From a virus: a stretch of DNA of 64,000 bases. The stretch's first letter is position 1. Each line of letters begins with the position of its first letter. Below are positions 11,365-53,454 of the stretch, one piece after another. Location of the stretch: the IMG/VR virus record IMGVR_UViG_3300046330_000229, positions 1 through 64,000 of that record; one strand, 5' to 3'. The position numbers were made by a program, and so were the translations under genes. The notes beneath the pieces were generated by a model. That model worked only from the letters and a program-made list of their open reading frames with translations, did not search any database and was not told where the DNA came from.

Positions 11365-13017
11365 TTACAGTTGGTGAATTTCATATCGTAAATCAACCGA
11401 ATATGCTGTGCTATTGGTGATCTCTAAATTACCGCTGGCATTGATAGCAAAAGTTAAATCATCCATAGACACGTTAGTAGCTACGTATGTATCATTGATC
11501 GCAGCATTAGTGTTGTTACCGGCCGCTTCTTTAGCAATATGTAACGTTCCAACTTTACAATCATTTCCACCTGAAGCTCTAGAAGCTCTGTATTTAATTA
11601 CATAAAATCTACTTGAAGTAATCGACACAGTAGCAACGCCAGCAGCAGCTAAAGCTGTTGTACGATTAGACGTTAATAGTGCATTTAAATTTGTACCCGT
11701 GGCTAATTGAATATTACCTAGTCCAGCGATACGACCATTGTTTGCATTAACAGCGTCATATAAATCTAAACCAATACTATCCCAGTTTGCTGAAATAAAA
11801 GTGCCTTGTTGTAATTGTCTATTTTCAAAATCTACAGTTAATTGTCCCGAACTATTAGCAATAGTACCAGCAACCATATCAACAACCGCACTGCCGTTTG
11901 TAAGTGTCGCAGCGTGAACGTCTTTAATTTTATTAGCAGAACTACCAACATCTCTAGTGTTATTAGAACCAGGGATTAAATCTTGGTTAAACGCTACAGG
12001 AGAAGTTAAATTTGATAAAGTTACGTTTGCACCAGAACCTATACTAGCAATTTCACTTTGTACGAAAGCTGTTGTTGCTATTTGTGTTGTATTAGTAGCA
12101 GGAGCCGCTGTAGGGGCTGTAGGTGTGCCTGTTAAAGCCGGAGACGCAATATTAGCCTTCAAAGCTAGAGCTGTGTCTGTGTAATCTTTAGTAGCAGCAT
12201 CTTGTGCCGCAGTAGGATTAGTGACGTTAATAATTTTATTACTGTTAGCGTTAAAGTTGGCAGTCATCGCCACTGTGCCGTCAGCTTTTAAATACGGAGA
12301 CAAATCAACAGCAGATATTGCTCTAGCATTAGTAAAATAAAGGTTAGTCGCACCTTCGGCTAAATCATCTGTAGTTTTTGTTGCAAGCGTCGTGTTAAAT
12401 CTAGCTGTAGTGTAGTAAAAGTTAGTACCACCTTCAGCGATGTCATCTGTATCTAAAACAACAACACCAGTAAGTCCGTTTACAGACATTACAGCATTAG
12501 AATTAGAAGATTTTTGCCAAATAGCTCCGCTATACACAACCCAGTCGCCTACACTAAATACTTGAGATCCTGAACCTAAATCTTGTGTACCAGCAGTGTT
12601 AACGCGATAAACGTCACCAGCATTACCTGTGCCATCTGCTAAAGTAGGTGTATTAGTAGCAGCATCCCAGTTGCCTTTGTAATCCATAACAGAATTAGGT
12701 AATTGAGCAGCAGGAACTTTACCGCCAGCATCTAGAGTTGCAACACCGAGTGCCGCAGCTTTTTCAGATGTAGGAATGTAATTGGCTAAAGCCGCACTAG
12801 TGCTAACTAAAGCCCAGTTTGTCGTACTACCGTTATCTTGTTTGATGTATACGTTTTGCGTACCATCCTGCATATACATAGAACCGCTGACAGCATCAAC
12901 AGCCGATACGGTTGGATCAGCGTTGTTACCAGTTATGATCTGGATGTCAGACTCCTGAAAACGTAAAATCTTTTTTAAAAGTTTTACAGCACCTAAGTTA
13001 AAAATTGTACTAGCCAT
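11365..13017 (-). CDS. Tail fibre protein
   Basis: GVATLDAGGKVPAAQLP, YKGNWDAATNTP, TTDDLAEGATNLYFT, ASPALTGTPTAPT...TQIATTAFV fibre motifs. Confidence 0.8.
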   Translation of the reverse strand: MASTIFNLGAVKLLKKILRFQESDIQIITGNNADPTVSAVDAVSGSMYMQDGTQNVYIKQDNGSTTNWALVSTSAALANYIPTSEKAAALGVATLDAGGKVPAAQLPNSVMDYKGNWDAATNTPTLADGTGNAGDVYRVNTAGTQDLGSGSQVFSVGDWVVYSGAIWQKSSNSNAVMSVNGLTGVVVLDTDDIAEGGTNFYYTTARFNTTLATKTTDDLAEGATNLYFTNARAISAVDLSPYLKADGTVAMTANFNANSNKIINVTNPTAAQDAATKDYTDTALALKANIASPALTGTPTAPTAAPATNTTQIATTAFVQSEIASIGSGANVTLSNLTSPVAFNQDLIPGSNNTRDVGSSANKIKDVHAATLTNGSAVVDMVAGTIANSSGQLTVDFENRQLQQGTFISANWDSIGLDLYDAVNANNGRIAGLGNIQLATGTNLNALLTSNRTTALAAAGVATVSITSSRFYVIKYRASRASGGNDCKVGTLHIAKEAAGNNTNAAINDTYVATNVSMDDLTFAINASGNLEITNSTAYSVDLRYEIHQL

Positions 13018-23848: not shown

Positions 23849-24373
23849 TTAAGTTGTTATTAAGTAGTAATCACCCTGATTGGCGCATTGCAAGTTGTTA
23901 TCGCTATATCTGTTACAAAGAGATGTAATAATAAAATCACAATCTAGACCTTGATTAAATGCGTAAAAGTATTTACTTTGAAATGCGTATCTTTGATCAA
24001 CTTTTACTTTAATAATTTTATTACTAAAAAGCTCTACACACTCTTCATACAAATCAACTAAATCGTAGGACGCTTGTATTCTACTAGTATTATCTCCACC
24101 AAAAGGTGCCGAAGGATTTTGGTCAATTACATACCTATCTATTGCATTACTTACTGGCTCCGGTTGTTGTGTAATACCTAAACTTGCTGTAGACAATAAA
24201 TCTTTTAAAATATCTATGATTTGTGTGTTTTGAATTGATTGTAAATACTCTGTGTAATAAAATAGAACGTCCCCTGGGTTTAGTGTACCCTCTTCCATTC
24301 TAGTTTTAATGTCCTCGTACATTTTAACAGCGTCTTTGTGATATTGGTATAATTCTCTCGGTTGTGCTGCCAT
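23849..24373 (-). CDS. Hypothetical protein
   Basis: ORF with GAGGG RBS in the late operon. Confidence 0.55.
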   Translation of the reverse strand: MAAQPRELYQYHKDAVKMYEDIKTRMEEGTLNPGDVLFYYTEYLQSIQNTQIIDILKDLLSTASLGITQQPEPVSNAIDRYVIDQNPSAPFGGDNTSRIQASYDLVDLYEECVELFSNKIIKVKVDQRYAFQSKYFYAFNQGLDCDFIITSLCNRYSDNNLQCANQGDYYLITT

Positions 24374-42814: not shown

Positions 42815-43024
42815 TTAACCGTGCTTAGTTACATGGATTATGTAATGTCTAGCTGCGGATAAAATATCTTTTGGATATCCTTTTTTATTATTTGAATGTT
42901 CAGCAATGTGCGGTGCGAGCTTTAAGCAAAATTCTATATCGTTTCTTAATAACGCTAACTCAAAAGCTTGATCTACATTAGTCTGTATTTTTCTATTCTT
43001 ATATCGTTTTCTTTTTACTGTCAT
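42815..43024 (-). CDS. Small basic hypothetical protein
   Basis: MTVKRKRYKNRK...; own TTGACA-17-TATAGT promoter (43062-43034). Confidence 0.5.
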   Translation of the reverse strand: MTVKRKRYKNRKIQTNVDQAFELALLRNDIEFCLKLAPHIAEHSNNKKGYPKDILSAARHYIIHVTKHG

Positions 43025-43058
43025 AATCTCATTACTATACACTATATTTTGTACACTG

Positions 43059-43086
43059 TCAAGTAAATAATCACTAATGCCGATAA
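43059..43086 (+). promoter_or_regulatory. sigma28 (FliA)-type promoter
   Basis: TCAAGTAA-N12-GCCGATAA. Confidence 0.7.
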
Positions 43087-45816: not shown

Positions 45817-46665
45817 TATAGTATATGTATCAACTAAACAAAGGACTAAAAAATGCAAATAATTCAAATAAGTTTTATAAAAAATGGTGTGTGGTTAGCT
45901 TCACACTATACTACTAATAAACATGATATGTCGTTGACTCCTGATAAGTCGTTGATAAGTCTTTTTGGTACGCATTCATTACCGACTCCGTATCCTGACT
46001 ACACTTGCCCGCACGAGGTTGCTGAAATGATTCAGAATAAAAACCCACAAGCTATAGTTGAGGTTGTCTAATATGAGAAAATACGCTAATACAGAAAAAT
46101 CAAGTGACAATATCGAGACTGTAATCGGACTTAAAGAAGCTCTAGAGGAGTTCATGGACTCCGTAAAAGAAAATGTCAATCCTTTTAGTGACGCATTCAC
46201 TAATGAAGTGAATGAACTGCCTTGGGAGTCTTGCAGCGGCTTCATAGCACATAATCATAACAGGGGCGGTCTTGACTTTATATCAATCGAAAGTATTGAC
46301 CGACTTGTAGGCAGCGGCGAGCACATGGGATTGAAAATCTCAAACTGGGTCAATGAACAATACGACGAGACTTATAAAAACGTAGTTACTGAAAACCCTT
46401 CATTAGAAACTGACAGCAATGCGTTTTACGAGGCCTTAGACTCTAGTTTTTGTTCTGATTATGATACAGTAGCATTCCGTGTACGCGCTATGTATGAGGG
46501 CAGCGGTTTACTTGTGGTGCATGTTGGATATGACAAGGACGCACCTTATTTTCGATGGTCTTGTAAAGCGCATCAAGAGATTGAAATTAAATTCAAGACA
46601 ATTGCTGGACTTAAAAGAAAATTAAAGGCTTTAATAAAAAAGATTGAAGTTTAGTAAAATAAAAC

Positions 46666-46692
46666 TAAAGTATTTTAAAACGTAGCCGATAA
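46666..46692 (+). promoter_or_regulatory. sigma28 (FliA)-type promoter
   Basis: TAAAGTAT-N11-GCCGATAA, near-consensus, intergenic, followed by GAGG RBS and ATG at 46713. Confidence 0.8.
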
Positions 46693-48594
46693 GTATATCA
46701 AGAGGTAAAAAAATGAAAATTTCAAAAGAATTACAAACTGAATATAAAAGACTAACAAGACTCAATAAAGCTATGATTAAAGCCGTTTTAAATTTTAATG
46801 ATTTTGATTCTTATGTTTTAAGTATCAAGGATAGTCTAGAGCGTATTGAACAGATTAAAAAAGGAGTAAAATAATATGTATAAAATTGAGACAAACTTAA
46901 CTGAAACACCTTACGTCAATCAAATATGTGTAAGACTTAACGCTTTAAAAGGCATATACGGATTATGTCAACTAGAATCTTGTCTTGCTGTAATCCTAGC
47001 CGGTCAATCGTCTAAACAAGTAATTTTAGCAAGACATATACATAACCTTGTGTTAAGCTATGACAAGACAGATATAAACGACGCACTATATATCATGTGC
47101 TTATTACAAAATACACAAGAGGTTGCATAGTTATGTACAAAAGAAAAACACAAGACGAATATATTTTATTAGGTAACTACGGCTACGGTCATGGTTATGA
47201 GGAGTTAACTGCGGAAAGTAGTCGCATTGAAATTAGACAGCGCCTAAAAGAATATAAAGAAAACGACTCTTATGCTTTAGACTTTAAAATAATTAAAAAA
47301 CGCGTGAAAATTGAAACTAATGAGGTAACTTAACATGAAAACAGCATATGATTTTTTAATGAAACTGTACGATGATATGACTAATGACGAAAATAGAGAC
47401 GAGCAGCTTTATTCAGAATTAGAATCAACACTAGTCACACTTAAAAATGAAATGGACGGACTTTAATATGGAAAAACAATTTTATACAAAAACCGGTCAA
47501 CTAACAGACTACGCACTAGCGTGCGGATATATGCAGACCTTTGAAGCATTAGACGAGCGCCTTTGTTTATATAAAGAACACAATGCGTATCATGTAAAAA
47601 TGACAAGCAATGTATCAAGAGTCTGGGAGGTGTTCGACACGTTAACAGAGGCTAGACAGTTTTATAAAAAAGAATATCTAAAGCTTGAACTAGCAAGATT
47701 AAATTCAAGACTAGGCTTTACAGCAAATTGTGACTTGTTATATAAAAAGATTGATAAAATAGAAAAAACTTTAAAAGGAATGAACTAGTATGATGAAATA
47801 TCAAGTAGATATTGAATTTAGGTATACGACAAAAAATGATGACGACGAAACTGATTATCATTTTAAAACTTGTGTTATAGGCATATACAACACACTAGAC
47901 GATGCTGTACAAGCTGGAAACATTATGCTTGAGTCACAACTAGAGACTAGGTTTAAATTAAATGAACATTGGAACGTAAAGGAACGGTTTTCTAAAAATA
48001 ATGTCTTAATAAGTGAACTAGCATATTTAAGGACACCATTTCAATTTTTTGCTAGAATTAAGCCGTTACACTTTACAGATGTTGGTGAAGCTGTTGAAAA
48101 TATACTAGGACTTAAATAGTATGATGAAATATGCAATATACTTCTATGACAAAAAAGGTAACAATATAAAAATCATATCGAGACATAAAACTATTTCAAG
48201 CGCAATGAAAAAACGAGCAAAAGGCGGCTCTAGACTTGAGGATATTGCAGCATCTATGGTAGGTCTTGAATATGTATTTTTTAAAATAGACACAATGCAA
48301 GATTTATTAGAAAAACCTTATAACATAACTTATTTTAGAGGAGTGAAGTAATATGTCAAAATTGCAATGGAATATGCGGACTTCTGTCAGCGATCAGATT
48401 CCTTTTTTTGTTAACAACGACTATCTAGTGCCCTATATTATTCGTCTTAACTCAAACAATACATATACAGTATACGACACGCGTCGCTATGGCTCGCGTC
48501 AAGACTTTAATTTTTTTGGATACAGCGTTGTGTCTGTACATAAAAGTCTAGTTCAAGCTAAACGTAAGGTTAGCATTTTAAATAAAGGCTAGTC

Positions 48595-49041
48595 ATGTTT
48601 TACTATGTAACAAACACTATGCTATTTATATCAGGATTGATCTTGATATCACAAGGTTGCGCAAAAAAAGAGCCTGAAATGTTCGATCAATATCTTGTGA
48701 CTTTCCAAGTCGAGGCCATAAACAGAGGCATTGATATTCAGCGCATGAGACTGCCTACTATGCACATATACGACCGCTTTCCTGACAGTCTAGGCAATAC
48801 GCTAGGATATTGTAGGCGAGGGGACGGCGTGCCCTCTGTACATATAAGCTTGTATCAATGGAATAAAATGACAGCCGGCTGTAAAGAACGACATATTTTT
48901 CATGAACTAGGTCATTGCGTGCTGAACAAAGGTCATACAGAGGGCGGCTTTTCAATCATGACTACATATCAGCAATGGAATTGTTCATTTTACGAAAATA
49001 ATAGAACGGCGAGCCTAGATGATTTATTTGAGAGGAAATAG
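48595..49041 (+). CDS. Putative lipoprotein zinc metallopeptidase (zincin/matrixin-like)
   Basis: Lipobox-like SQGC; HELGHCVLNKGH and SIM Met-turn. Confidence 0.75.
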   Translation: MFYYVTNTMLFISGLILISQGCAKKEPEMFDQYLVTFQVEAINRGIDIQRMRLPTMHIYDRFPDSLGNTLGYCRRGDGVPSVHISLYQWNKMTAGCKERHIFHELGHCVLNKGHTEGGFSIMTTYQQWNCSFYENNRTASLDDLFERK

Positions 49042-49639
49042 ATAAGATGAAATTTAAAAATATAAATGAACTATATGACAGATACGAATATTTAAAAGTT
49101 ATGGCAGACAGAAAATCAGCGTGGAATAAGGAATCAATATCTTATGATCTTAATATTCAAAAACTAAGACAGTACGCTTTTGAGTTACGCTGTACACTTA
49201 AAGACTTAACACCTAGCGAGCAAGTTTTATTGGTCAACATAACAGAAAGTAATAGGTAGTATAATGAATCATATACAGTGGCTTTATTCGCAATTAAAAG
49301 ATCATGGTCAAGCGACGCAACGTGACTATCTGAATCATGTACCCGAGTCAATATCACGCAACGACGCTCTGCTATGGTTGTATAAACTAGAAAAGAAAAG
49401 ACTAGTTATGATTGACTATACTAAGAAAAATCCAGTGTTCTATCTACGCGAATACACTGGGGAATATTCAAATTAACGCGTAAAGGGGTCTTGCGGAATT
49501 TTAAATTTTGGGGTATACTTAACCATACCCTCGAAATAAAAAACTTTTTACCTCTAAGAGACTTTTATATTTTGAAAGTGAAAATCAAAGCCAGAAATTA
49601 CGAATTGACCCTAAGTCCCCCATATACAAAGGATGCAGC

Positions 49640-50662
49640 ATGAAAATAGTTAAGTGTAAAGAATCAGCGAAAAGCCACTACGGAAGATCGGTTTTGTTTT
49701 ACAATCCAACAAAAGGTTTGTATAGTTTTAATTCTGGTATAAAATTGGCCGTCTTGCAAGTAAACACAACCCAATTGATCAGTTTACGATCTGGAGAAGA
49801 TCAATACTTAGACCAAATAAGTAAAGAGTTAGGGGTAGACAGAAGCAATTTTATTATTGAAGAACAATTTGTTGAAGACGTGTCAGTTAATCACGCAGGT
49901 GAACACACTCATTTAGTTAGTGTAATTAAAACGGAGAACACTTCACTACCTTTTGGTACATATAAGCTTGTAACTATTAATCATACCGATTATTTGAAGC
50001 CTATTAAAATGGATAGTACTATTATTAAAGTTGGTGACAATCGTATTCACAACGAGGTGGCGGGATTCTTTAAAGATGCGCCAGTAGGACGCAGAAACAA
50101 AAAGGGTATCCTTGCTTATGGTAGGCCAGGCAACGGTAAGACCAGCGACATCATGCAGTTAGACGCATTAGCTAAGACTGAAGGGTTCTACGTTCTTATT
50201 CCACAAGATATGATTATTTTACAAGACTTTGCTGAAGTGTTTAAGAATAAAAATACTGTAGTCATTTTAGAAGAGACTACACAAATGCTGGAACGCGGGG
50301 CTTTAGAGAGCATTCTTAGCTTCCTTGACGGTGAGTATTCATGGGACAACTGTGTTACAGTGTGTACAACCAACTATCCTGATGACTTCCCTTCTAATAT
50401 TATCGATAGACCTGGACGCATTGATACGTTTATTGAGTATAAGAATCCAAGCAGCGAGGAAATTACAGCATTGGTACTGAAGTTCGGATTACCTGCTGAC
50501 GACGCATTACCGCTTCAAGGTAAAGACTTGTCCTTTGATTACGTGTCACATGTGTGTAGTATAGCTAAACAAACTGGTGAGCCTGTCAGCAAGGTTTACA
50601 ATGATATGAAAGATCGTCGTAAGTTCTTATCTGAAACATTCAAAGGGAAGATGGGTTTATAA
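49640..50662 (+). CDS. AAA+ ATPase
   Basis: ILAYGRPGNGKT, VILEE, CTTNYP, IIDRPGRID. Confidence 0.85.
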   Translation: MKIVKCKESAKSHYGRSVLFYNPTKGLYSFNSGIKLAVLQVNTTQLISLRSGEDQYLDQISKELGVDRSNFIIEEQFVEDVSVNHAGEHTHLVSVIKTENTSLPFGTYKLVTINHTDYLKPIKMDSTIIKVGDNRIHNEVAGFFKDAPVGRRNKKGILAYGRPGNGKTSDIMQLDALAKTEGFYVLIPQDMIILQDFAEVFKNKNTVVILEETTQMLERGALESILSFLDGEYSWDNCVTVCTTNYPDDFPSNIIDRPGRIDTFIEYKNPSSEEITALVLKFGLPADDALPLQGKDLSFDYVSHVCSIAKQTGEPVSKVYNDMKDRRKFLSETFKGKMGL

Positions 50663-50663
50663 T

Positions 50664-51005
50664 ATGAAGCTAACTGAAAAAGAACAACAAGAAGTGTCGG
50701 CTATTCTACGCAACACACAATCGGTATCACCTATCGTAACAAGTATGTACGACGAAACAATTGAATGCAATCCCGAGCTTAGACTATTACGTAAGAAGTT
50801 GTACAAGGCTATTGCGTTTAGTAAGCCAACGTATGGGAGACATACCAACCATTTCCGTAACGTTGACATGACCCTGGACTACATCTTTAACGATATGAAA
50901 TATTATGAACTGAGTAAGAAGTACAAAGTATGCCGGACTTTAGTTAGCGTTACAATAGCTAGAACTGTATCTGACTTAAAGAAAGAAATACTTGAGCACA
51001 TTTAA
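50664..51005 (+). CDS. Possible HTH DNA-binding protein
   Basis: C-terminal MKYYELSKKYKVCRTLVS resembles a sigma region 4-type HTH. Confidence 0.4.
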   Translation: MKLTEKEQQEVSAILRNTQSVSPIVTSMYDETIECNPELRLLRKKLYKAIAFSKPTYGRHTNHFRNVDMTLDYIFNDMKYYELSKKYKVCRTLVSVTIARTVSDLKKEILEHI

Positions 51006-51552
51006 TCTATACAAAATTATAGCTAGAACAAGTGCTAATCATCCTCTGATTAAAAAATTCATCAGCAAACATCACTATATCGGTACTCTTAGTCGCGGTA
51101 ATCAGTATGTGTATTGTTTGGGTATAGGTAACAAATTAGTAGGGGTGGCTATCTACGGTACTCCGGTTGGAACATATTGTAGTCAAAAATACGGAAACGT
51201 AATAGAACTTAAACGCTTCGCATTGTCTCCGGAATGTCCTAAGAACACAGGCTCGTGGTTTCTAGCTAAATGTCATAAGCTATTACCCAAAGGTCTGTCA
51301 GTTCTATCGTACTGTGATCCTAGCGCCGGACACGAAGGCACCCTATATCGTGCGGCTAACTTTATGTATCTAGGTAAACAAAAACACCCATCTTTTATGA
51401 TTAAAGTAAAAGGAGAGAAAAAACTATACCCAGCTAGTGTTATGTACAGATCAAAGAAAACAGGAGCTAGACTTAAACTATTGAAACAGCAAGGATTAGC
51501 CAAACAAGTTACAGCACCCTCTAAACACATATTCATATACAAAAGAACTTAG
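50992..51552 (+). CDS. Mom-family (GNAT-fold) DNA adenine modification enzyme
   Basis: KHHY, LVGVAIYG, IELKRF, NTGSWFL, SYCDP..GHEGTLYRAANF motifs. Confidence 0.8.
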   Translation: MSTFNLYKIIARTSANHPLIKKFISKHHYIGTLSRGNQYVYCLGIGNKLVGVAIYGTPVGTYCSQKYGNVIELKRFALSPECPKNTGSWFLAKCHKLLPKGLSVLSYCDPSAGHEGTLYRAANFMYLGKQKHPSFMIKVKGEKKLYPASVMYRSKKTGARLKLLKQQGLAKQVTAPSKHIFIYKRT

Positions 51553-51919
51553 ACGATACACCGAGCAATCCATAACATAACACTGGTTACATTAGGAGTC
51601 TTCTTGTGTAGCTATTCTTTCCCAGTGTTTACTTCAGCTAGCCATAAGTCTTTGTGCATTACAGCACCATAGATTAATGTCTTCTCGTCTTTGCTATCTC
51701 GTTACGTTACCCTATTTAAGTTCGGGCACTTCTCTTGACCTAGCAAGCTCACACTCGTATATCGTCTGAACGTTGTCTCTTGATTTGTTCTCGGTATTAT
51801 CGATAGCACAAACCCAGGTTTTCATTTCCTGCCATATACTGAAACAACTTCCATGCGCTTATCGTTACATAAGCCGTGCCTTGTTTAAAGAGCGGTAGGC
51901 GTTGCATGCTCTGTGTATC
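51551..51919 (-). ncRNA. Candidate large structured ncRNA (~365 nt)
   Basis: No ORF of 60 aa or more; own TTGACA-17-TATATT promoter (51948-51920); many complementary segments (see findings). Confidence 0.7.
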
Positions 51920-51994
51920 AATATAACACAAAATGTAGCAATTGTCAAATAAAATCTTGACATTACGTTAAATCTATGTTAAAATGGATAAATT

Positions 51995-52591
51995 ATGGAG
52001 TTAAACCAAATGACAATACAATTACCAAGTCCGTATATATGGGTTACAGAGTTTAACGATCAAGCTGTTCAAAAGTTCTTTGACCAGTTTACACAAATGG
52101 AATCAGATCCTACCATTGAGGTCATCACCGTTGTGATAGATAGTTTTGGCGGACAAGCTTACTCTATGTTTGCTATGCGCGATTTAATCAAAACTAGTAA
52201 GAAGCCGGTTTCAACTGTAGCTCTAGGTAAGGCCATGAGCTGCGGGGCGTGGTTGTTAGCTGCCGGTACAAAAGGACTACGTTACATTTCACCTAGTACT
52301 CATGTCATGATTCACCAGATCTCTTCAGGTGCGGCTGGTAAACTAGAGGACATGAAAGTGGATTTAAATCACAGCACAGATTTGAGTGTGCAAGCTTTTA
52401 ATTTGTTAGCCAGTGATATTGGTATGCCGGTCAATAAACTTAAAGCTTTAGTTAAGGGTGAAACTAATTCCGATCTTTACTTAACACCTAAAGAGTGCTT
52501 GAAGATGAAGATTGTTGATTTTATAGATATACCTCGTATGGCATTTATTCCACCTATGCAAACATTAACCACTAATGTTAAGAGACGATAA
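51995..52591 (+). CDS. clpP: ClpP-like protease (cytoplasmic)
   Basis: IDSFGG, GKAMSCG (Ser), VMIHQ (His), DLYLTPKEC. Confidence 0.88.
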   Translation: MELNQMTIQLPSPYIWVTEFNDQAVQKFFDQFTQMESDPTIEVITVVIDSFGGQAYSMFAMRDLIKTSKKPVSTVALGKAMSCGAWLLAAGTKGLRYISPSTHVMIHQISSGAAGKLEDMKVDLNHSTDLSVQAFNLLASDIGMPVNKLKALVKGETNSDLYLTPKECLKMKIVDFIDIPRMAFIPPMQTLTTNVKRR

Positions 52592-53454
52592 TGGATAGAC
52601 CTTGGGTACATATTAAAAATACCCAAGATACATACCGAACTTTATACAGGCTTTTGTACTTGGGGTTTGATGTTGTTGTTGAGTATACGATGAAACATAA
52701 TAGCAAAGGACACCTTTTTAATTTTTATTGTAACTACCATTGTATTTCCGGCCGAGTTAGAATGGTTGCTAATGTTAAAGTTTACTCTGAGGATTTTGAT
52801 AGTTTTAATGAAGATGTATATAGTAGTTTTATAAGAAAAGAATCAGATAGACTCCATCCAGAAGGTGCGATAGTTTGTTAAATTTAAGGTACACCAGAAC
52901 TAATGAAAAACTCATACCTTGGTTGTTTAAACTAGGGTGCGATGATATACATTTACATTTTACTACACATACTATAAATTTTACTGTATGTTTACACATA
53001 CACGACACCGATTCTAGTATGATGTTTAAAGATACTTTTAGAGTAAAAAATCCGGATACGGCAGTTAGCGATGCTTTAAAGCACATGACAAGGATTTATA
53101 TATTTTTATCAATTGATGACATAAAATATTGCGATGAATAAATATATATCAATTACTTATCAAAACGAACATACAATTAACACAATCAGGCTGTTACATT
53201 ATGTAGGTATTGATAAAATTGAGCTATGCTTTTATATAAAAAATAGCAACACAAGAGTTTATATAGAAACTAGACGACTAACCTCGGAAATATATCCGTT
53301 TGGCTTTGAAGCTCACGGCGGCGAGCTTATTGGATGTCGGGGCACAGAAGTCGATTTTAAGAATTGTGCGTATGACACTATAACTAAAACTACCCGCATG
53401 TCTCCATCAAACTTCGACGAACTGGTTCAAACTGATCCGATTTTTCTTTTATAA
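52591..53454 (+). other. Three family C micro-paralog CDSs (52591, 52875, 53134)
   Basis: RLLYLGFDVV, WLFKLGCDDI, RLLHYVGIDKI. Confidence 0.6.

Follow-up and report, generated by a model that had tools for sequence, protein, structure and literature searches.

A probable leftward transcription unit in the gap between the Mom-like and ClpP-like genes of a freshwater phage

The window analysed in this work is the first 64 kb (64,000 nucleotides) of the 82,265-bp IMG/VR virus record IMGVR_UViG_3300046330_000229. The "terminal repeat" of this record is a 24-bp assembly overlap only, and DNA of the same phage is present in many freshwater metagenome runs from different studies. Nearly all genes between 31 kb and 78 kb lie on the plus strand; among them, a Mom-like gene and a ClpP-like gene are separated by 442 bp, one of the three largest gaps of the genome. 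A first-pass annotation had described this gap as free of long open reading frames (ORFs), which is confirmed, as no ORF in it exceeds 44 aa and stop codons interrupt every frame. For comparison we used a phage genome of 81,942 bp (G006, hereafter the relative), found by a terminase search and the sole genome-level relative examined. The features considered are the following:

50992-51552, plus strand: Mom-like gene (PF25680, E 2e-24), with its stop codon at 51550-51552
51553-51994: gap between the Mom-like and ClpP-like genes, 442 bp
51551-51567, no strand assigned: repeat L, directly after the mom stop codon, complementary to repeats M and R
51553-51881, minus strand: body of the putative unit, ORF-free, GC ~0.42 against 0.363 for the genome, not alignable with the relative
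51754-51767, no strand assigned: repeat M, pairing over 14 bp with L (one bulge and, on the minus-strand RNA, one G-U; -17.0 kcal/mol)
51865-51963, minus strand (also given as 51868-51963): candidate 32-aa ORF, with the conserved 5' block at its C-terminal end
51894-51881, minus strand: boxA-like string, ~20 nt past the predicted start, followed by a 6-bp hairpin
51882-51907, minus strand: conserved 5' block of 26 nt, 20 of them identical in the relative, with the peptide motif CNAYRSLN
51907-51919, no strand assigned: repeat R, abutting the -10 hexamer of P(-), matching L at 12/13 and lying mostly upstream of the predicted start
51920-51948, minus strand: P(-), leftward promoter of sigma70 type (TTGACA at 51948-51943, 17-bp spacer, TATATT at 51925-51920)
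51957-51985, plus strand: P(+), rightward promoter for the clpP operon, in back-to-back arrangement with P(-)
51995-52591, plus strand: ClpP-like gene (PF00574), the first gene of the operon driven by P(+)

Both genes belong to an accessory island (49491-53454) which contains an AAA ATPase, a 113-aa protein, Mom, ClpP and three small paralogues; at this position the syntenic relative carries 2.7 kb of unrelated small genes, and its own Mom-like gene (28-30% identical) sits elsewhere, with a convergent 409-aa gene directly after it. The gap element is single-copy, with no second copy in the genome. No match was obtained by blastn against GenBank phages, in 166 loci surrounding relatives of ClpP and Mom (nhmmer, blastn and tblastx), or in the whole records of the five nearest ClpP relatives, and a 21-mer scan of IMG/VR, together with two scans for the inverted-repeat architecture, found no other copy. 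The best result of a metagenome scan with ClpP was a locus 32% identical, with nothing closer, and a GTDB scan with the Mom alignment gave matches all at or below 42% identity; the protein collection contains Mom relatives at 63-67% identity. Furthermore, a simple scan of both strands of 46000-51700 found no intrinsic-terminator-like site, against 2.4 expected from shuffles, and in 50500-53000 a simple scan found a single intrinsic terminator, inside clpP. Operon boundaries in 46000-53000 may rest on mechanisms other than intrinsic terminators.

The minus-strand TTGACA-17-TATATT promoter reported in the first pass is present at 51948-51920; it carries an extended -10 (TG at 51928-51927), matches the consensus at 11 of 12 positions, and its predicted start falls at ~51914-51912 (7 nt past the -10, i.e., ~51913). 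The -35 hexamers of P(-) and P(+) are 8 bp apart. Promoters matching at least 11/12 number 14 in the genome compared with 3.5 expected from shuffles, and those that also carry the extended TG number 6 compared with 0.2 (~30-fold). Because consensus sites are enriched in this way and the promoter pair is kept in the relative, P(-) is probably a real promoter, as judged from sequence. No convincing second copy of the promoter cassette was found in this genome or in the relative. On the other side of the pair, the -10 of P(+) ends 9 nt before the clpP ATG at 51995, and a start there would be almost leaderless; a second ATG lies at 52010, with GGAG 9 nt upstream. In the relative, the beginning of an unrelated gene of 99 aa aligns with the ATG at 51995 and the codons next to it, and the conserved cassette thus extends into the gene start.

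Other promoter-like sequences were observed elsewhere in the genome. A second leftward consensus promoter, at 43062-43034, lies inside the plus-strand region (42815-43062); an in-frame ATG at ~43024 nearly coincides with its predicted start, which suggests that a basic protein of ~69 aa is translated from a leaderless mRNA, and the ~1 kb to its left has a reversed purine skew and few credible ORFs. At 24324-24353 on the plus strand, a consensus promoter with extended -10 (TTAACA-18-TATAAT) is placed antisense in the minus-strand late region and is a candidate antisense start. The 11-mer TTAACATATAT occurs in 9 exact copies between 3253 and 42818, all on the minus strand, most of them just upstream of minus-strand late-region genes, with an AT-rich stretch and a Shine-Dalgarno sequence typically coming next; the relative also has 9 exact copies in the same orientation. 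This distribution supports TTAACATATAT as a putative phage-specific late promoter. A one-mismatch copy at 51982-51972, considered as a late promoter upstream of the 32-aa ORF, was rejected, being at chance level on both strands and absent in the relative.

The two phages have terminases 63% identical and 53 of 133 ORFs common in synteny, and synonymous sites are saturated between them. The island at 49.5-53.5 kb corresponds to 11.3-14.0 kb of the relative, with no protein match there, and the genes on either side of its promoter pair are not homologous to those of this phage. The leftward promoter of the relative (TTGACA-17-CATATT with TG, 12653-12625) has 14 of 15 bases identical around the -10; its rightward promoter is TTGACA-17-TAGAAT (12662-12690), and the -35 hexamers are again 8 bp apart (12648-12667). 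By blastn, 51882-52005 aligns with 12579-12717 of the relative (E 7e-6, in a small search space). Thus the start of the predicted leftward transcript, ~26-45 nt, is kept, and beyond ~45 nt the sequences do not align; the counterpart of the body (12289-12625, ~337 nt) is ORF-poor.

Strand composition sets the gap apart from its surroundings. Most other gaps have a GC content of 0.31-0.35. The minus strand of the gap is 58.6% purine, while the plus-strand genes here have a mean plus-strand purine fraction of 0.539, and no other gap flanked by plus-strand genes on both sides has a pyrimidine-rich plus strand; other reversals of the purine bias in the plus-gene region include the minus-strand genes at 78.5-82 kb and a stretch at 42-43 kb located left of another minus promoter. 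In the relative, the 337 nt to the left of the leftward promoter have a GC content of 0.398 vs. 0.355, and a plus-strand purine fraction of 0.466 vs. 0.55-0.62 in the neighbours. Since the GC rise and the purine reversal are repeated over these 337 nt, the predicted leftward unit is conserved in position, size, composition and promoter between the two phages. The first-pass proposal of an independently promoted minus-strand unit, probably non-coding, is in agreement with the promoter enrichment, the conservation in the relative, the reversed strand composition and the lack of a credible ORF; the promoter, its conservation and the composition signature are in silico observations, as is the lack of a conserved fold described below. 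Taken together, these results indicate that the leftward transcription unit is probably real and common to a related phage.

A strain comparison was also available from run X17; in the four DNA runs considered, interpretation was confined to the parts of the stretch under contig cover. Within 51556-51933 the X17 sequence shows 0-2 differences from the reference, and the following 50 nt show 6; in the X17 contig spanning 51770-52179, no reliable difference occurs before 51934 and nine are listed after it. The six substitutions in 51934-51983 all fall in spacers except one, which affects the least-conserved position of the P(+) -10, and P(-) carries three changes, all in its spacer and none in the hexamers. 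As 10 of the 11 differences in the X17 clpP are at third codon positions, neutral divergence amounts to several percent, and 0-2 changes in ~370 nt are therefore far too few for neutral DNA and few for most RNAs as well. For this near-identity of 51556-51933, a recently exchanged tract bounded at the promoter appears at least as likely as selection.

The reading that we favour, with a probability of about 0.4, is that the gap encodes a conserved, mostly unstructured leftward early transcript which runs convergently into the mom operon. P(-), a strong host-type promoter (sigma70), would fire against the direction of all neighbouring genes and give a purine-rich, weakly structured RNA without credible ORF or intrinsic terminator, whose first ~45 nt would be conserved and whose remaining ~300 nt would keep length and composition only. 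This RNA would converge on the 3' end of the upstream operon, whose last gene here is mom, and would enter the Mom-like gene in antisense; its overlap with mom is assumed, since the 3' end is undefined. Its function would most likely be exerted in cis: through transcriptional interference and antisense pairing, the convergent transcript would damp the mom operon or insulate it from that of clpP, in a terminator-poor stretch of the genome. We infer the production of the RNA, the position of its end and its function. Several findings speak against the cis-antisense model: antisense control does not require a spacer of 365 nt; the gene next to the unit is another one in the relative, so that any mom-specific role is not conserved; the codon-like substitutions and the three-copy repeat described below are not explained by it; and the near-identity between strains may be a recombination tract, with the comparison resting on one relative. 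The leftward transcript, if real, constitutes a conserved antisense-oriented early unit in a phage group known only from metagenomes, and would suggest how these genomes separate neighbouring operons, or restrain a potentially toxic DNA-modification gene, where a simple scan detects no intrinsic terminators.

The conserved 5' block calls for a coding alternative. Read in one minus-strand frame, none of its six differences from the relative changes an amino acid, and five of them fall in one codon phase; the eight residues CNAYRSLN are all identical (tblastn E 3e-4), and a one-codon gap extends the match to 12 residues. With six substitutions as the whole sample, the rough p of this codon-like pattern is 0.002-0.01. 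Since the promoter hexamers are kept base for base and the changes in the block are synonymous, the block looks peptide-constrained, which points to a different constraint on the two stretches. Hence, there might be a tiny minus-strand protein gene here, either the 32-aa ORF (51963-51865) or a shorter peptide ending in CNAYRSLN, in which case the RNA would serve as its mRNA, have a long 3' UTR and perhaps be held closed by 5'-3' pairing in the manner of hok-type mRNAs. The 32-aa ORF stays open in the X17 strain, but the three X17 changes within it are all non-synonymous, it is uncalled by gene callers, and its ATG is located upstream of P(-) and lacks a Shine-Dalgarno sequence, with no in-frame start available within the P(-) transcript instead. 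Moreover, the corresponding frame of the relative does not stay open: codon 9 is TAG, 8 nt are inserted, and a TAA directly precedes the block, so that 13 codons without a start codon are left, and no intact ORF over the block is common to the two phages. Within the P(-) transcript, no usable Shine-Dalgarno-led minus-strand ORF was found, and no ORF has a membrane-spanning segment by hand estimate. None of eight candidate small peptides is present in a collection of 15 billion proteins, the 37-aa and 44-aa ORFs had no tblastn match among phages, and the 36-aa ORF, which in the relative is AUG-UAA, had no hit among 1.8 billion representatives. We regard the protein gene as unlikely, although it is the best placed of the alternatives.

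The confinement of conservation to the first ~45 nt would also be expected of an RNA acting in trans, with the 5' stretch as a seed for phage or host mRNA, or as a protein site (nut/boxA-like), and a dispensable tail. The boxA-like string, one insertion from the E. coli consensus, is the best such match in the genome. Conversely, its core is not kept in the relative, where no site lies within 2 edits of the consensus; the RNA has no terminator or other defined 3' end, and no target was identified, as the rest of the genome offers no more complementary matches than chance would give. Action in trans thus seems a rather improbable account of the gap.

With the same rather low probability, uncultured freshwater phages of ~82 kb may possess a leftward early RNA that is conserved and represents a new kind of regulator, with a codon-constrained start of ~45 nt lacking a conventional ORF and a purine-rich free tail of ~300 nt. 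The tail, retaining length, composition and end-to-end complementarity, may belong, for example, to a micro-peptide mRNA locked by 5'-3' pairing or to a decoy RNA; an unusual micro-peptide could be the reason for a codon-like constraint where no ORF exists. Conservation of the end-to-end pairing in the relative was considered and rejected, its boundary repeat (12/15) being no better than other windows.

Slightly less probable still is a decayed former minus-strand gene, with a promoter still recognisable and no present function. The coding-like strand composition, the coding-like substitutions in one short block, the stops in every frame and the location in an accessory island whose content differs between relatives are what such a remnant would leave. 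Nevertheless, promoter geometry, size and composition are kept in the relative despite saturated synonymous sites, a divergence at which junk would have been lost or scrambled, and protein similarity was found for no frame.

The repeats L, M and R raise the question of an element acting at the DNA level. The first-pass annotation had reported a 12/13 inverted repeat at the boundaries and an internal pairing site, and both exist, as 51555-51567/51907-51919 and 51551-51561/51757-51767, respectively. A 12/13 repeat arises in 1.9% of 1000 dinucleotide shuffles and two repeats with a common arm in 0.2%; the three-way complementarity is not due to chance. Including the bases upstream of the predicted start, the boundary repeat reaches -20.4 kcal/mol, 4 sd from the mean, and otherwise -11.2 kcal/mol; an RNA begun at the predicted start would contain no more than 6-8 of the 13 bases that make up the 5' arm, and the 5'-3' duplex would weaken from -16.2 to ~-7 kcal/mol. 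That the repeat is strong only with these upstream bases, that R abuts the -10 hexamer and L the mom stop codon, and that the segment is near-identical between strains with differing flanks, as for an exchanged cassette, would all suit a DNA element rather than an RNA, in which L, M and R (11-15 bp) would be protein-binding or recombination sites: promoter-looping operators, a packaging or recombination site, or an inverted-repeat-bounded cassette. On the other hand, the genome contains the motif at no other place, a target-site duplication is lacking, no other copy was found in IMG/VR, and the boundary repeat of the relative is only 12/15; we judge such an element to be about as improbable as the decayed gene. 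Two narrower candidates were rejected, namely a genome-wide operator based on the L/M/R motif, given its single location, and a MITE-like element, for which inverted repeats are present but the flanks show no target-site duplication, the element is single-copy, and a pattern search of IMG/VR found none.

As a separate observation, rightward contigs in four DNA runs begin at 51771, 51771, 51770 and 51779, and two leftward contigs end at 51764 and 51775. These boundaries (51764-51779) adjoin repeat M and the palindromic AACGTT at 51769-51774, and may stem from a polymorphic site, from a fixed end of the DNA or from chance at low depth.

The first-pass annotation had proposed a structured RNA of ~365 nt with mutually exclusive long-range pairings, similar in complexity to ROOL and GOLLD, or else a ribozyme, a switch or a protein sponge. 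All ten of the stem motif pairs that it named were found in place, and its statement that tmRNA and tRNA are lacking agrees with ARAGORN, which finds no such gene in the window. The complementarities behind the exclusive pairings exist, but the fold shifts with the ends that are assumed, and the 5' arm lies mostly outside the RNA: with the 5' end set at 51919 the RNA ends pair with each other, with the 5' end at 51914 or 51912 the internal site becomes the partner of the 3' end, and when the 3' end is moved 150 nt further neither long-range pairing forms. The length of ~365 nt is merely the size of the gap, with no intrinsic terminator bounding it on either strand.

Measured against controls, the folding is unexceptional. 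The overall MFE z is -2.0 to -2.8, equal on both strands, and 4 of 44 values from 370-nt control windows of the same genome, taken on both strands, are at or below -2.3. In 100-nt windows z runs from +1.3 to -2.3, with a background 5th percentile of -2.17; since no such window stands out, the fold excess comes from the long-range repeats. The ensemble diversity of the gap RNA is in the lowest 5-7% of shuffles. The counterpart in the relative (z -0.49 and +0.25) folds like shuffled sequence, and for the conserved 5' part, compared in these two phages only, the consensus structure has -0.5 kcal/mol and no compensatory pair. Rfam 15 at gathering thresholds gave no hit in the 64 kb, no family being reached among all those searched, including ROOL, GOLLD, tmRNA, RNase P, self-cleaving ribozymes and Sok; at E <= 10, the only hits in 51200-52300 were three at chance level, which scored 15-22 bits where 50-56 are required, and nothing was found in the counterpart region of the relative. 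An RNA of ROOL/GOLLD type, a ribozyme or a switch is therefore not supported: the fold is at background level and strand-symmetric, depends on arbitrary ends and is not conserved in the relative. A Csr-type sponge was rejected, as there are only 4 GGA motifs.

Consequently, the view of the gap RNA as a large, intricately folded molecule does not hold, and it is not detectably structured. A folded ncRNA of ~365 nt, using alternative long-range pairings as a switch, ribozyme or scaffold, is the least probable of all the readings, and very unlikely: the low z, the narrow ensemble, the three-way complementarity, the single G-U pair of the L:M helix, which favours the minus strand, and the GC content, higher than in other gaps, are outweighed by the equal z of the opposite strand, the equally low genomic controls, the absence of a prominent local domain, the dependence on assumed ends, the position of the 5' arm, the lack of an Rfam hit, the z of about 0 and lack of shared structure in the relative, and a purine content that restricts the pairable share of the RNA. 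The gap feature is a modest regulatory element, not a new class of large structured RNA.

Among known systems, hok/sok-type mRNAs resemble the predicted transcript in their size of ~400 nt, their own promoter, the tiny overlapping ORFs near the 5' end, and the 5'-3' end complementarity with an alternative internal pairing. They differ in that no hydrophobic toxin ORF would be translatable from the P(-) transcript, no Rfam hit was obtained, and there is no clear antisense sRNA gene, the sole candidate being a 9/12 plus-strand promoter at 51773-51800; most of the 5' arm also lies outside the predicted RNA. The 5'-3' pairing is 12/13 at the DNA level and amounts to ~-7 kcal/mol from the predicted start. 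With lambda nut and rrn boxA sites the gap has in common a boxA-like string ~20 nt into an early transcript and then a short hairpin; here, in contrast, the string is not kept in the relative, no N-like protein was identified, and there are no downstream genes to antiterminate into.

The ROOL and GOLLD RNAs (Rfam; PMC12286853) are likewise non-coding, measure several hundred nt and come from phage or prophage DNA. The present gap differs from them in having no covariance-model match, a fold at background, no structure common with the relative, and a purine-rich sequence.

Lambda OOP, lambda paQ and P22 sar are phage cis-antisense RNAs, and the favoured model follows a logic akin to that of OOP or paQ. 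OOP measures 77 nt, ends at a defined terminator and has been proven to overlap cII, whereas here 365 nt precede the target gene, no defined short transcript with a terminator was found, and the neighbouring gene is not the same in the relative. OOP and cII are among the subjects discussed in PMC5869508. What the predicted unit does have in common with OOP, in silico, is a promoter convergent on a neighbouring gene: in both, a host-type promoter in the rightward early region fires leftward, and the non-coding transcript converges, or here would converge, on the 3' end of its neighbour.
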